Shown one piece after another: positions 4,538 to 20,348 of a stretch of 64,000 bases of DNA (positions are counted from its first letter, which is position 1; every line of letters starts with the position of its first letter). The position numbers and the translations under genes were made by a program. The notes under the pieces are model-generated. The model did not search any database and was not told where the DNA came from. It saw only the letters and a list, made by a program, of their open reading frames with translations. This stretch comes from Promethearchaeota archaeon (GTDB lineage: Archaea > Asgardarchaeota > Heimdallarchaeia > Hodarchaeales > Hodarchaeaceae). The stretch spans positions 288,001 through 352,000 of the forward strand of contig JBHLMN010000001.1 of the NCBI GenBank assembly GCA_048938105.1, written 5' to 3'.

Positions 4538-5806
4538 CTAAAAATAATCATCTAATGTTTTTCGATACAAGATAGGGCTTTGATGGTAATAATATCGCAT
4601 TGGAGTTGTTAAATGTTTACCAATAAATCTGAGGGCTTGATGCAAATCGTTAAAACACTGATAGGGATTATTAACTGCCTTACGCATGTTTTCTCGGACT
4701 TGCCAGACTCCTAAAGGAATCGCGTATCCTTTTCCAACCTCTCGAAAAGCAACCACTGCGGCTTTTCGTCTCATCTGTACAAGTTTTTCTTGTACAGCTA
4801 ATCTAGCAGCATAATAACCTCCAACTGTATTAGTTGCGTAAGTTTTTCGTCCATTTGGGCCTTCAGTATCCGTTGAAATTCCTGGAGTATAACCAGAAAT
4901 ATTCCAAGCACTCTTCTTTTTCCATGTTTCATGATAATCAAAGTGCCACTCACGTCCAGGAATAAATAATACCCAGAAATCATTATCTAGGTAAGAATTG
5001 TGAAAAACCATAAAATCCTGAATTTCAGGATAGTCCTGAATTTTCCTTCTGAGATAGTTTCCAGTCATATCGTCAACAGCTGTGATACTCCACCTTGTAG
5101 GTACGAACCTCCGATTTTTAGTCTCACCTAACAAACCAGCAGATAGTATTCTTGATATTTGAGTAACTGTTGCCTCTGTTCTATATAGTTCTGTAACTGC
5201 AGAAACAGCTTTCAAATCAGAATCACTCACAATACGTTCTACTTGATGATCAACTTTAGGAGTAGATGCTAGATGTATTGAATCAATATGAACTCGAGCG
5301 CCCATGGGCTGAGTGAAACGATTGAAACTTAGATCGAGTCGAGGTTTTTTAGAGAACTTTACTTCCAGATCAACAGGAGAAGAAGATTGGATCTGTTCCT
5401 GTGTGATTTCAAGGATTTTTGTGGATGATGTAACATCTGTAACTTGGACTGGTTCAGCCATAAAACGAAATAATTTAGCTCGGAGATGAACAATATCTTC
5501 TAATGACATATTTGTCTGCCAAATATCAGGTTCATCGACTACTTGAATATTCTCCCAATTCAATGCTGCCATTGGACCTAACCTGACCTTTGGATATCCA
5601 AATCTACCAACAAACAGGCTTGGTGGGCTAGGCCCATAGTATTCATCTTTTAACTTAGGTAAAATCTTTCTAACTGGTAATAAAGCCTTTGTTTTTAGAA
5701 TAATGGGACAATAGGAAAGACCACACAAAAATTTCCCACCTTTACAGCGTAAACAGAGGTTTTGGTTGGTGGGTATTCGAACCATGATTTCACTCACTGA
5801 TAACAT
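4538..5806 (-). CDS. nreA: Nre-family PCNA-interacting DNA repair protein
   Basis: N-terminal CLRCKG..CG...CP, SPPSLFVGRFGYPKV, RFVPTRWSITAVD, GGYYAARL, PLGVWQVRE; C-terminal PIP-like KTLDDYF. Confidence 0.92.
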   Translation of the reverse strand: MLSVSEIMVRIPTNQNLCLRCKGGKFLCGLSYCPIILKTKALLPVRKILPKLKDEYYGPSPPSLFVGRFGYPKVRLGPMAALNWENIQVVDEPDIWQTNMSLEDIVHLRAKLFRFMAEPVQVTDVTSSTKILEITQEQIQSSSPVDLEVKFSKKPRLDLSFNRFTQPMGARVHIDSIHLASTPKVDHQVERIVSDSDLKAVSAVTELYRTEATVTQISRILSAGLLGETKNRRFVPTRWSITAVDDMTGNYLRRKIQDYPEIQDFMVFHNSYLDNDFWVLFIPGREWHFDYHETWKKKSAWNISGYTPGISTDTEGPNGRKTYATNTVGGYYAARLAVQEKLVQMRRKAAVVAFREVGKGYAIPLGVWQVRENMRKAVNNPYQCFNDLHQALRFIGKHLTTPMRYYYHQSPILYRKTLDDYF

Positions 5807-5845: not shown

Positions 5846-7231
5846 CTAAAGAGTTTTTTGAATTGGTTTTGAGGAATGAATAACATTTACATTTTTATAA
5901 TTTCCTTTTTGACCAATAACCAAAGTCCCATATACTCCATCGAACCCGTAAGGATGAAAAGTGAAATTACCTTCTTTGACCTTAAGAATTGCGTTAATTA
6001 TAGATGACTTTATATGGCTACTAAGTCTTGCTTTTACTTCTTCAGAAGAAAGTTGCCAAATCATCCGTTCAGGGCCTATATGAGTTGTAATTTGTTGGTA
6101 CTGACTAATTAGAGACTTTGATGTCTTAGTTTTTATATTTAAGACATGACTTAAAATGTCTATTAATGGTACCATACGAATGAATTTTTTTAAGGATTTT
6201 ACTTCCCCAAGTACTCTTTTTGTATCTTGTGCACGACTAATCTCAACGCACCTCTGAAAAACTCCAATTGTAAGGGATTTTTTGCAAATAGGACAAATAT
6301 CATGAGAAGGTACGTTTTGAGGAGAGAAATAACAATACTCATCATCTCCATGTGTTCCAGGGCGTTTTCTTCCTGCCCGATGGCCTGTTAAAAAAAATCT
6401 TCCCTCTTCTGGGGGAAATTCAACGGTATATAATACTTGATTATTGCGTAAAGCCGAAAGAATGCTTTGATAATTTATTTTTGATACAGAAAGAACAGTG
6501 AATTCACGGCCCATCCGATGCAAAGCACTTGAGTGAGCATCTGAATTTGATATTAATGTTCTGTTGTCTAATTCAGGAATTAGAGACAGAAATTCGGGAT
6601 CGGCGGACAAACCAGTCTCAAAAACACGCAATCTTGAAGTAGCTGATGCGAAAAAATCTGCTAAATGGTTAATACGAATATTGCCTTTACCAGATCCGAA
6701 AACTCCTTGGGGTGTCATGATATGAGCTGGAATAGCCTCAATCCAAGGATCTAAATCTAAAATGGAGTGAAGGCGTTCTGCAACTTGCATTGAAGATTGG
6801 CACAAGATAAAAGGTCTTGCCATTTTTTGATGTTTTACTCCCCATTTATCCAAAAGTGCTCTAAATGTTTCTACTAAGGAAAAATTCGGAAATAGAAAGA
6901 TAATATGAGTTTCTTTTGAATATTTTCCTATTTTTGCATTGAAAATCATCTCTGTCTGTAAAATGAAGCGAGTTTGATAATTATTTTGGAGAAAAAATAC
7001 TCCATTCGCATCTTCAATAAAAGATTCCTTGAGAATATCAGTCCACATTGTGAATTGACAGTCTCCTGTCCCAATCAGATCAATTCCTTTTAATGGCATT
7101 GTCTGATTTGTTTTTACCAAATATGAAATAGCTTTTTTCCGATTGTTAACCATTTCTTCTGGTCTAATTCCAAGGCTTTGAGTTCCACCTGCAAAAACAG
7201 AATGAGCGTGTAGATCTACCGCTACTTCCAA
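5846..7231 (-). CDS. Endonuclease Q-family PHP-domain protein
   Basis: DLHAHS, KGIDLIGTGD, IPAHIMTP, ETGLSAD, SNSDAHS, GREFT, CPIC zinc site, GFDGVYG; TTG start with GAGGAG SD. Confidence 0.88.
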   Translation of the reverse strand: MEVAVDLHAHSVFAGGTQSLGIRPEEMVNNRKKAISYLVKTNQTMPLKGIDLIGTGDCQFTMWTDILKESFIEDANGVFFLQNNYQTRFILQTEMIFNAKIGKYSKETHIIFLFPNFSLVETFRALLDKWGVKHQKMARPFILCQSSMQVAERLHSILDLDPWIEAIPAHIMTPQGVFGSGKGNIRINHLADFFASATSRLRVFETGLSADPEFLSLIPELDNRTLISNSDAHSSALHRMGREFTVLSVSKINYQSILSALRNNQVLYTVEFPPEEGRFFLTGHRAGRKRPGTHGDDEYCYFSPQNVPSHDICPICKKSLTIGVFQRCVEISRAQDTKRVLGEVKSLKKFIRMVPLIDILSHVLNIKTKTSKSLISQYQQITTHIGPERMIWQLSSEEVKARLSSHIKSSIINAILKVKEGNFTFHPYGFDGVYGTLVIGQKGNYKNVNVIHSSKPIQKTL

Positions 7232-7243
7232 TAAATGTTCTCC

Positions 7244-8593
7244 TCAATATATGTCAAGTTTAGTATGGATATTATTACTATTCTTAGGATTAGGTTTTAC
7301 TTGATATTCTAATACCTGTTCACTAACTAATTTCAATAGACCTACTCCTTTAGTAGAATCACCAACCATGAAGAGGGAAGTATCCTTTGTGTTATTAGTT
7401 GCCCACCTCAAGGCAATAGAGTTTGATCCATGTTGAGACAAAACCATCTGTATCAAATCAGTACGAAACAATCGTGCGCTAATATTGTTAATAGCTATGA
7501 AGATCTGACAGATAAAGGCATGTTTTCTCGCTACATGTGTAGCATTAGTACGAAGGGTTTCAACTTTATCTGTACTACACCGTAAGAGGGACACATCCGT
7601 GATAATTGGTTTAAAGCTTTCGAGTAATTCGAAACTTTTATCTAAGAATTGATTTTGAGGATATAGCTTGCTTTCATCCTTTATTGATAATGAATACCTT
7701 GAAATGTATGGTTGATAGTCATCAGAGCTTTGGACATTCATATGCCATAGAATTTCCCGAAAGTTTCTGAATAAGCTCCCGAGACGCCCCTTGCCTGAAC
7801 TGAAAGCAAAGACAAAGTTATTTCGAATACATGTCAAATAGAATTGTTGATTATCGTAAGTTTTTCCGTGAATTTCGATGGGAAGCGCGTCAAAGAAGGT
7901 TCCAAAGGTTTTTAGCTCACGTTCATAATCTTGTAATAGTACAGGGATTTTATTCACTAAAGAAATTATATCTGGAGATAAAATTATGTTATGAACAGCT
8001 CGGATGGTACCATCTGAAACTAAGACTGTCTCTGTATCGGTACAGATTTCACTTATTCGATTTTGAAGTGTATGATCAATTTTAGTTAATAGGATTTTCT
8101 TAATGTTACTGAACACTTTACTTAAGGAATAGGTTTCTTGGTTACTGTTTTTTTGAAATTTTATTTCTCGAATAGCATCTTGAAGAACATTTGAGAAAGC
8201 AAGAGAATGCTGTAATAATTTGTCTTGATGAAAACGTGGGATAAATAACATGAAACTTTCAATTCGATTTTTTCCTCTGGCTTCAGGATCTTCAATCGTG
8301 AATGAGTGAATTAATACACGGCCTTGGATGCCTGTAACATTAATTGGTATGATTGCTGTTTCAGGTTCTCCTGTTGGTTCACCCACACCAATTGCCATCG
8401 TAAATAATGTGGTTGTGACACCCTGAAGAATTATTTTCGGGATTTCTAATCCATGAGTCAGATAAGACTTTAAAATTGGGCCATGTTCTTCATCAAAAAC
8501 AATATGGGCCAAAAAAAATTGAATAGGCCTATCTTCTGACGTTTCCAAAGTTCCCATGATTTTAGGGCTCACCTTTTGCTTACTGAAACTCAA
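7244..8593 (-). CDS. Folliculin/SMCR8-like uDENN-longin domain fused to two roadblock-like domains
   Basis: HIVFDEEHGPIL (uDENN beta-hairpin) and HSFTIEDPEARGKNR (folliculin-type DxxARG); the C-terminal half has two segments ending in roadblock-type helices (GRLGSLFRNF, KGVGLLKLVS). Confidence 0.7.
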   Translation of the reverse strand: MSFSKQKVSPKIMGTLETSEDRPIQFFLAHIVFDEEHGPILKSYLTHGLEIPKIILQGVTTTLFTMAIGVGEPTGEPETAIIPINVTGIQGRVLIHSFTIEDPEARGKNRIESFMLFIPRFHQDKLLQHSLAFSNVLQDAIREIKFQKNSNQETYSLSKVFSNIKKILLTKIDHTLQNRISEICTDTETVLVSDGTIRAVHNIILSPDIISLVNKIPVLLQDYERELKTFGTFFDALPIEIHGKTYDNQQFYLTCIRNNFVFAFSSGKGRLGSLFRNFREILWHMNVQSSDDYQPYISRYSLSIKDESKLYPQNQFLDKSFELLESFKPIITDVSLLRCSTDKVETLRTNATHVARKHAFICQIFIAINNISARLFRTDLIQMVLSQHGSNSIALRWATNNTKDTSLFMVGDSTKGVGLLKLVSEQVLEYQVKPNPKNSNNIHTKLDIY

Positions 8594-8837: not shown

Positions 8838-9143
8838 TTAAGATTTTGATTCTTTTTTCTTAATTAAATCTTTTATTTCCTCCCATTCTTTCTCTTGTTT
8901 TGATTTTTTCGTAAGCTGGTCATTTACTCCTAAAATATTTAACACCCATTGACGTTCTTTCTCACGTTTTTGTAATCTTTTCTTCTGGCGATGTTCTGCT
9001 GCATTGATCCAAGTCTCTAATGCAGCTTCTTGTATTCCACATTTAATACAGACATACAATTTTTCCTCGGGGTTCCAAAACAGAGTTCCCTTCTTGCAAT
9101 TAGGACAAGGAATTCTTGAATCACGAACAGGAGGCTTAGACAT
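8838..9143 (-). CDS. Small zinc-ribbon protein with basic helical tail
   Basis: CPNC...CIKC; starts 6 bp after the roadblock gene stop. Confidence 0.75.
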   Translation of the reverse strand: MSKPPVRDSRIPCPNCKKGTLFWNPEEKLYVCIKCGIQEAALETWINAAEHRQKKRLQKREKERQWVLNILGVNDQLTKKSKQEKEWEEIKDLIKKKESKS

Positions 9144-9149
9144 AACTAC

Positions 9150-9644
9150 TTACTTCTCCATTGTTAATATCTTATCTAATTCTTTCTGAGTAATAGATAA
9201 GGATGAGATTTGTGATTGGGAACGCTTTGAAGGAGGCCATTGTTGTATTATCTTCAAAATTGAATCAATAGCTGGCCCAATAATTAATTTCAAGAGCTCG
9301 AGATCCACATAAGGATCAGTCAATACGCCTAAGAAAGCAATACGCCCTATTGCTCGTAAGAATAATTTAAAATTACTGCTTTCAGCGGTGAAAGAAACCC
9401 AAGGGGAGCTACCAATTTCTTGACCAATGGTATCCATATTGGATTGAATTCCAGCTACCAAAGAACAAAGGATAAGGCTGCTTTCCTTACCTAATGTGCC
9501 TTCCAAATTCACTTCTTCAATTAGAAGTCCATCTGTATCAACACAGAAACCTGAATAAATACCATCCAGAGAGCTCACGATGTCAGTTAATATTTGTGGA
9601 AGTCCAGTTTTGAATTGATTTGTATTATCATTGGGAAAGGACAA
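9150..9644 (-). CDS. Roadblock/LC7 (MglB-like) protein
   Basis: GIYSGFCVDTDGLLI, central helix, LFLRAIGRIAFLGVL, DLELLKL pattern. Confidence 0.85.
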   Translation of the reverse strand: MSFPNDNTNQFKTGLPQILTDIVSSLDGIYSGFCVDTDGLLIEEVNLEGTLGKESSLILCSLVAGIQSNMDTIGQEIGSSPWVSFTAESSNFKLFLRAIGRIAFLGVLTDPYVDLELLKLIIGPAIDSILKIIQQWPPSKRSQSQISSLSITQKELDKILTMEK

Positions 9645-19799: not shown

Positions 19800-20348
19800 T
19801 CATTCAGATGTAAAATCTAAAATTTCAGCCCCTAACTGGTCAAAAGCAGCTTGAACACCGTTTCCAGTTTTTGCACTAGTTTCAATGAAATTTAATCCAA
19901 GACGATCAGCGAGTACTTTGCCTTCATCTGTGGATACGGTTTCTGTTCCTTCCTCACGCAAATCGGTTTTGTTTGCAAGCAGAACCACAGGAACATCCTT
20001 ATCACGTTTAGAATTTTTTCGGATATCATCCAACCATTTCTCTACATTTTCAAATGTTTGACGACGTGTAATGTCGTAAACAAGGATTCCACCAAATACT
20101 TTTGTATAATATGCTTTCACGACATCCTTAAAAACAGGCTGCCCTGCAAGATCCCAGATTTGCCAGCGAATATGTGTTTCCTTTATCGTTGTATCATAAA
20201 GGGCAAAATCTGCGCCCATTGTACTTAGATAATCTGTTTCGAAACCCTCACCTAGGTAACGTTTTCGCAGTGAGGTTTTCCCAACTGCTCCATCTCCAAT
20301 TAGTACAATTTTCCATAAGCGATGATCCTCATTACTCAACAATTTCAC
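19800..20348 (-). CDS. Rab-like small GTPase
   Basis: KIVLIGDGAVGKTS, YLSTMGADF, IWDLAGQ, YDIT, NKTDL, ETSAK; no C-terminal Cys prenylation motif. Confidence 0.93.
   Translation of the reverse strand: MKLLSNEDHRLWKIVLIGDGAVGKTSLRKRYLGEGFETDYLSTMGADFALYDTTIKETHIRWQIWDLAGQPVFKDVVKAYYTKVFGGILVYDITRRQTFENVEKWLDDIRKNSKRDKDVPVVLLANKTDLREEGTETVSTDEGKVLADRLGLNFIETSAKTGNGVQAAFDQLGAEILDFTSE

Follow-up and report, generated by a model that had tools for sequence, protein, structure and literature searches.

In this work, we describe a 437-residue protein encoded on the minus strand of a 64,000-nucleotide stretch of DNA (the window) from a Promethearchaeota archaeon of the order Hodarchaeales. Its N-terminal domain is a longin of the folliculin/SMCR8 class with a candidate arginine finger, followed by two roadblock domains in tandem. 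We lean towards the view that the protein is a longin-roadblock-roadblock regulator of a small Ras-superfamily GTPase, of the GTPase-activating protein (GAP) type, which might work as a dimer or on a scaffold. The protein is better framed as a GAP-type longin on a tri-longin-like body than as a GAP fused to a Ragulator-like scaffold. What may be new is the combination; Heimdallarchaeial longins of the folliculin type have already been published (PMC12290439).

Results

A conserved gene confined to one Asgard order

The open frame at positions 7244-8593 of the minus strand, from which the original prediction started, is a real and conserved gene. It comprises 449 codons when read from the TTG at 8593. 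The start of the protein is likely the ATG at 8557 (Met13 of the TTG frame), which we prefer because an identical database record and the N-termini of the homologues begin there. Residues are numbered here on the resulting 437-residue form unless the TTG numbering is indicated, which is higher by 12, such that Arg106 becomes Arg94. The segment HSFTIEDPEARGKNR occupies residues 96-110 and the FDEEHGP hairpin residues 33-39 (both in TTG numbering). The predicted frame, the codon of Arg106 at nucleotides 8276-8278, and the hairpin were all found as described, and the domain limits proposed from the letters (about 25-170, 175-290, and 320-435) agree with those of the AlphaFold2 model (26-150, 174-289, and 315-429, TTG numbering). 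The genome of origin, which is 99% complete, contains a single copy of the gene, with one full-length match.

A word-indexed search retrieved 77 relatives of about 420-440 residues, all from metagenome genomes labelled as Heimdall- or Hodarchaeales. When 1.84 billion representatives were searched exhaustively with a profile, 18 matches resulted, all of them family members or fragments and none of them longer, fused, or eukaryotic. We also surveyed 399 Asgard genomes, including that of the window, with the full-length family profile. Within the genus, 19 of the 20 other genomes had one copy each, as did both genomes of a second family in the same order. The profile gave no full-length match in the 376 remaining Asgard genomes, the sole extra match being a weak one to domain 1 only, in one genome. 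The family is thus confined to one Asgard order, within which it falls into five clades with mutual identities of 23-36%. The family alignment contains 39 sequences, one of which is truncated, and the Gly-Pro (GP) motif was hence counted over 38.

A folliculin-class longin with a candidate arginine finger

The N-terminal domain had been predicted to be a folliculin/uDENN longin, and profile, fold, and motifs all bear this out. The protein scores 28.5 bits with the Pfam folliculin profile PF11704, above the cut-off of 23.3 (E 1.6e-6). The profile recognises 36 of the 39 family members, at best with an E-value of 2.8e-8. The AlphaFold2 model calculated from the 39-sequence alignment is confident, with a mean predicted local distance difference test (pLDDT) score of 84.8 and a predicted template modelling score of 0.82. 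The closest solved folds to domain 1 are the longins of FLCN, FNIP, SMCR8, and C9orf72, followed by GATOR1 chains (scoring about 10.5) and the longins of TRAPP, sedlin, and DENND1 (9-11). In the model, the loop carrying Arg94 falls between strands 77-89 and 97-107, and strand 26-35 opens with Gly26-Pro27.

The arginine is present in all 39 homologues and the GP motif in all 38 that could be compared. Across five clades of such low mutual identity, this conservation exceeds chance. Domain 1 is by far the best conserved part of the protein, its identity to the distant clades being 52%, compared with 29% for domain 2 and 19% for domain 3, which fits a catalytic or GTPase-binding role. An arginine finger paired with a GP motif is the signature of GAP longins and has been reported for Heimdallarchaeial "FLCN/SMCR8-type" longins in a work with 15 Asgard longins (PMC12290439). 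Domain 1 is therefore not new in kind, and the original remark that folliculin-like domains are known in Asgards was correct.

Other candidate longins of this type were noticed in the same genome. A second folliculin-type longin lies on the same contig, outside the window (G000:C52, about 41.9-42.8 kb, minus strand; L002:1351-2100). It follows a transmembrane helix at the C-terminus of a giant frame (8857 residues open). It shares the finger motif (VPDPEARGG) and has a GP motif (FFDQVKGP), with a PF11704 score of 23.5 bits, barely over the cut-off. The domain-1 profile also matched weakly at two more places (E 1.4e-3 and 3e-3), in a 1541-residue frame at G000:C52:37526-37744 and in a 194-residue frame at G000:C20:116498-116875, both on the minus strand; one of the two sits near the giant frame.

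Two roadblock domains behind the longin

In the AlphaFold2 model, domains 2 and 3 share the topology a-bb-a-bbb-a, and both superpose on solved roadblocks. Domain 2 folded in isolation has a pLDDT of 85.5. For domain 2, the Foldseek list consisted almost entirely of roadblocks, with modest E-values starting from 2e-3; an unbiased structural comparison of the domain covered 48,161 chains. The Pfam family PF03259 (Robl_LC7) matched none of the 39 members, and the roadblock assignment consequently holds at the level of the fold only. Topology and fold searches agree with the earlier proposal that the two C-terminal segments are roadblock folds. The same proposal had tied them to the C-terminal domains of Rag GTPases and to Ragulator, a tie that did not survive the unbiased comparison, in which MglB and stand-alone Asgard roadblocks scored equally well or better. 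By fold, domain 2 is also nearer to stand-alone roadblocks than to the second longin domain (LD2) of Mon1 or Inturned. Unlike MglB, LAMTOR2/3, the stand-alone Asgard roadblocks, and the C-terminal domains of Rag/Gtr proteins, the roadblocks of the 437-residue protein are fused in tandem behind a longin. A prediction of a homodimer from two copies returned a score of 0.01, which carries no weight either way.

Comparison with known longin architectures

When the full-length model was compared with solved structures, the 18 best Foldseek matches were subunits of the tri-longin RabGEFs (GEFs, guanine nucleotide exchange factors, that act on Rab GTPases), namely Inturned, Fuzzy, MON1, CCZ1, and one BLOC-3 chain, with E-values of 3.8e-8 to 5.5e-5 over about 460-550 aligned columns. 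Mon1 and Ccz1 consist of a canonical longin, a roadblock-type, and a lamtor-type domain, and the defining tri-longin feature is the alphaX-betaX linker that joins LD1 to LD2 and completes LD3 (Klink et al., PMC8833172). The 437-residue protein resembles the tri-longin subunits (Mon1, Ccz1, Fuzzy, Inturned, HPS1, HPS4) in having three collinear domains of the longin superfamily, the canonical longin first and then the roadblock type, at a size of about 430 residues. It also has an extra helix in the linker after domain 1, which might be the counterpart of alphaX (PMC8833172). The longin-roadblock-roadblock order, originally taken for an unusual Rosetta-stone fusion prefiguring FLCN-Rag-Ragulator, is accordingly a known tri-longin RabGEF layout (PMC8833172).

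Despite these similarities, domain 3 forms a whole roadblock that includes an N-terminal helix of its own, and not a lamtor-type domain that alphaX completes. Overall, the structures superpose poorly, and domain 1 bears GAP-type motifs in a protein without a paralogous partner. No match at E <= 0.1 was found in the 39 members for the Pfam families Mon1, Fuz_longin_1-3, and Intu_longin_1-3. In the genome of origin, PF19037 matched nothing and PF19036 gave only sub-threshold matches to other small open reading frames. The protein looks like a tri-longin but cannot be filed as one.

With the catalytic longins FLCN, SMCR8, and NPRL2 of the FLCN-FNIP, C9orf72-SMCR8-WDR41, and GATOR1 complexes, the protein shares a longin N-terminal domain with the GP motif and a conserved arginine, its candidate finger, in the loop before the last core strand. 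It differs from FLCN/SMCR8-type proteins in that two roadblock domains stand in the place of the DENN domain. It also differs from FLCN-FNIP and C9orf72-SMCR8 in that the gene is single copy, without an FNIP- or C9orf72-like partner; one copy per genome leaves no paralogous partner for a heterodimer. The published literature that we searched describes no tri-longin layout for Asgard archaea, nor did we find in it a GAP-type first domain on a tri-longin-like body in a single-copy archaeal gene.

Gene neighbourhood

The features of the window are collected in Table 1. Clade A, comprising the window and 19 other loci, has a fixed gene order: the 164-residue roadblock protein (Robl164), a zinc-ribbon protein, the 437-residue gene, Endonuclease Q (EndoQ), Nre, a 118-residue gene, IF-2B on the other strand, and a 311-residue Arf-family GTPase (Arf311). 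The block is conserved throughout, the exceptions being locus L028, without a roadblock match, and three contigs that end before Arf311. In clade B (loci L004 and L008), genes for a 700-residue protein, a 146-residue protein, and the orthologue are followed by a Ras-type GTPase 59-148 nucleotides downstream. Locus L007 combines a Ras-type GTPase, a roadblock homologue, the orthologue, and EndoQ. An Arf-type GTPase is divergently adjacent in L006 and L029, where a roadblock homologue lies 2 kb off, and at L030, where there is no small GTPase, a roadblock homologue lies immediately upstream.

Taken together, a protein of the Robl164 family accompanies the gene in four of the five clades, adjoining it in clade A, L007, and L030 and lying 2 kb away in L006/L029. 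A small GTPase is its immediate neighbour in three of the five. The GTPases adjoining the orthologues in L004, L007, and L008 are of the Ras/Rab type (PF00071, E 1e-32 to 1e-35). The genome of origin encodes about 52 small GTPases in 5.85 Mb, and by a rough estimate a GTPase would adjoin the gene by chance at about 3% of loci. Clade A and L007 (with a 31% identical orthologue) both have EndoQ beside the gene, and in L004 and L008 it lies within 2.9 kb. In clade B it is encoded on the other strand, and clades C and E lack it.

According to Liu et al., genes for a roadblock ("LAMTOR1-like") protein, a Rab-like GTPase, and a DENN protein form an operon that is conserved in Asgards, and there are Heimdallarchaeial proteins with the domain organisation of FLCN (bioRxiv 10.1101/2020.10.19.343400). 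The present loci are similar in bringing a multi-domain longin protein together with a small GTPase and a small roadblock protein. They differ from that operon in that the 437-residue family occurs in a single order and lacks a DENN domain in the predicted model.

Arf311 had been put forward as the candidate substrate. It lies 4.6 kb from the gene in the window and 4.3-4.9 kb downstream of it in the clade A loci, where its identity (74-95%) is above that of the 437-residue protein (62-89%). Among solved structures, it is closest to four GTP-binding/Arf GTPase entries (8oun, 8oum, 8oul, and 8ouk). The C-terminal extension of Arf311 has no Pfam match and its Atlas leads score below 0.9; an N-terminal basic/amphipathic stretch was also noticed. 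The synteny holds only in clade A, which is of genus level, and the other clades have Ras/Rab-type GTPases or a different Arf paralogue. Arf311 is not the closest relative of the GTPases adjoining the orthologues there, and the Arf-type neighbour in L006 is closer to five other paralogues in the genome of origin than to Arf311. Because the adjacent GTPase is Ras/Rab-like in some clades and Arf-like in another, the case for Arf311 is weak; it is a possible substrate and not one that is singled out. Elsewhere in the window, a Ras/Rab-like small GTPase (19839-20345, minus strand) is 35% identical to the GTPase adjoining the L004 orthologue, with one TAA inside the match.

Further genes were noticed near the orthologues. 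The putative operon of clade B is led by a protein of 696-708 residues (L004:7427-9517; L008:5357-7483) with only sub-threshold matches to GOLD/EMP24 (E 0.013) and filamin. The 146-residue protein upstream in L004 and L008 has no Pfam match and does not match the Robl164 profile significantly, and Atlas returned only unnamed archaeal clusters. In three deep clades (L004:18183-20200, L007:1-2066, and L030:3548-5442), the orthologue has genes for a methyltransferase and a DRG/Obg-type GTPase (MMR_HSR1 plus TGS) in its vicinity, and this pair is probably a remnant of an ancestral gene order.

Table 1. Features of the 437-residue protein and of its neighbours, in window coordinates (residues numbered from the ATG at 8557)
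Feature	Coordinates	Strand	Basis or remark
CDS, longin-roadblock-roadblock protein (437 aa)	7244..8557	-	Identical database record; homologue N-termini align at Met13
Domain 1 (aa 14-138), folliculin/SMCR8-class longin, bb-a-bbb-aa	8144..8518	-	AlphaFold2 model
GP motif Gly26-Pro27, start of beta2	8477..8482	-	Position as described in PMC12290439
Candidate arginine finger Arg94, beta4-beta5 loop, in D-x-x-A-R-G	8276..8278	-	Invariant
Extra linker helix (aa 145-156), between longin and first roadblock	8090..8125	-	Predicted models
Domain 2 (aa 162-277), roadblock	7727..8074	-	AlphaFold2 model
Domain 3 (aa 303-417), roadblock	7307..7651	-	AlphaFold2 model
Robl164, roadblock/LC7 protein (164 aa), conserved neighbour and candidate partner	9150..9644	-	Pfam Robl_LC7, E 3.4e-4
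Zinc-ribbon protein (101 aa), between Robl164 and the 437-aa gene	8838..9143	-	Kept in clade A only
EndoQ homologue	5846-7231	-	PDB PfuEndoQ, E 1.3e-17
Nre, after EndoQ	4538-5806	-	Part of the clade A block
Arf311, Arf-family GTPase (311 aa), C-terminal extension of about 130 aa	1684..2619	-	Pfam Arf, 3.1e-33

Discussion

Arg164 of FLCN and Arg147 of SMCR8 are fingers that are inserted into the active site of a GTPase. By analogy, domain 1 of the 437-residue protein is probably a GTPase-activating domain, which would place Arg94 and the neighbouring GP hairpin into the active site of its substrate. The two roadblock domains would then probably form a non-catalytic layer, either for self-association or for pairing with the 164-residue roadblock protein, and could perhaps also serve localisation, as LD2 and LD3 do in Mon1-Ccz1.

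Several observations weigh against this reading. To our knowledge, the eukaryotic relatives all act as heterodimers of paralogues, and the gene described here is single copy. By the Foldseek comparison, the full-length architecture resembles GEFs, not GAPs. The residue-level equivalence of Arg94 with FLCN Arg164 and SMCR8 Arg147 is tentative. For FLCN, it is based on the range of the Pfam match, on the superposition at the level of the domain, and on the pattern F-x-I-x-D-x-x-A-R-G, which we take to be common to FLCN and the 437-residue protein (PMC12290439). Searches of PDB-chain sequences with the family profile and with the domain-1 profile did not retrieve FLCN, and the same kind of search with the whole protein gave no meaningful match. 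In addition, the adjacent GTPase is of the Ras/Rab type in two clades and of the Arf type in one, and clade A has none nearer than 4.3 kb. Since the subfamily varies by clade, no single substrate family is indicated.

The protein might instead be an exchange factor of the tri-longin type, or a non-catalytic GTPase platform as in Mon1-Ccz1, Fuzzy-Inturned, and BLOC-3, with the arginine and the GP motif serving GTPase binding or folding. Longin platforms are more commonly GEFs, all of the 18 best full-length matches are tri-longin RabGEF subunits, and Ras/Rab-type GTPases adjoin the gene in L004, L007, and L008. The domain order is that of Mon1 and Ccz1, a longin followed by a roadblock-type and a lamtor-type domain (PMC8833172). 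The GAP-type motifs of domain 1 and the complete roadblock fold of domain 3 set the protein apart from these subunits. We consider this possibility unlikely, although it is the main rival. Less probable still is the narrower version of our preferred reading, in which the GAP would carry built-in scaffolds resembling Ragulator or Rag C-terminal domains and act on Arf311. Conservation of Arf311 throughout clade A is in its favour, but EndoQ, Nre, the 118-residue gene, and IF-2B on the opposite strand intervene, and the synteny ends with that genus-level clade. Nothing in the roadblock matches is specific to Ragulator or Rag, since MglB and stand-alone Asgard roadblocks fit at least as well, and neither the L006 neighbour, with its five closer paralogues, nor the tail of Arf311, with neither a Pfam match nor an Atlas lead reaching 0.9, strengthens the case.

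The linked EndoQ and Nre genes might point to a GTPase-independent role such as DNA repair. EndoQ starts 12 nucleotides past the stop codon; clade A and L007 have it next to the gene, and in L004 and L008 it stays within 2.9 kb. However, the known roles of all three folds are in GTPase regulation or scaffolding, GTPase and roadblock neighbours recur too, and EndoQ changes strand in clade B and is missing from clades C and E. The linkage is more likely an inherited gene order than a functional link, and a repair role seems very improbable. We give hardly any weight to a true folliculin orthologue composed of longin and DENN domains, the organisation reported for some Heimdallarchaeial proteins by Liu et al., whose roadblock/Rab-like/DENN operon resembles the neighbourhoods found here (bioRxiv 10.1101/2020.10.19.343400). 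The model contains two antiparallel a-bb-a-bbb-a domains that match roadblocks and not DENN, DENND1 structures align only to residues 4-196, and no DENN, Folliculin_C, or SMCR8_C Pfam match was found in the 39 members. A DENN reading of residues 162-417 was rejected in view of the two roadblock folds in the predicted model.

The protein may also bear on the origin of the eukaryotic pairs. Sanchez-Pulido and Ponting inferred that these pairs descend from one homodimeric three-longin protein (PMC7703760). A single-copy archaeal protein with a longin-roadblock-roadblock layout could be the kind of molecule that they predicted (PMC7703760), and the 437-residue protein might, as a tentative and rather doubtful suggestion, be a survivor of such a precursor of the eukaryotic hexa-longin complexes, equipped with the catalytic finger of the longin GAPs. 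If this were true, the folliculin/SMCR8/NPRL2 GAPs and the GEFs of the Mon1-Ccz1 type would share one archaeal root, which would be a platform of the longin-roadblock-roadblock layout, together with a Ras-superfamily GTPase and a small roadblock protein as its co-workers.

Eukaryotic organelles are defined by the switches Rab, Arf, and Rag, and these are governed by platforms built from longin and roadblock domains. The Asgard order in which this gene occurs has been proposed as the nearest to eukaryotes. A single-copy gene that joins a GAP-type catalytic signature to a GEF-type domain order is relevant to how the paired GAP complexes (folliculin, C9orf72-SMCR8, and GATOR1) and GEF complexes (Mon1-Ccz1, CPLANE, and BLOC-3) originated. 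It offers a testable archaeal model for the rise of small-GTPase regulators. In several lineages, the gene and its probable partners form a compact putative operon, a minimal and expressible three-protein system that would allow us to ask if the arginine-finger mechanism is older than eukaryotes and which family of GTPases was the first that it served.
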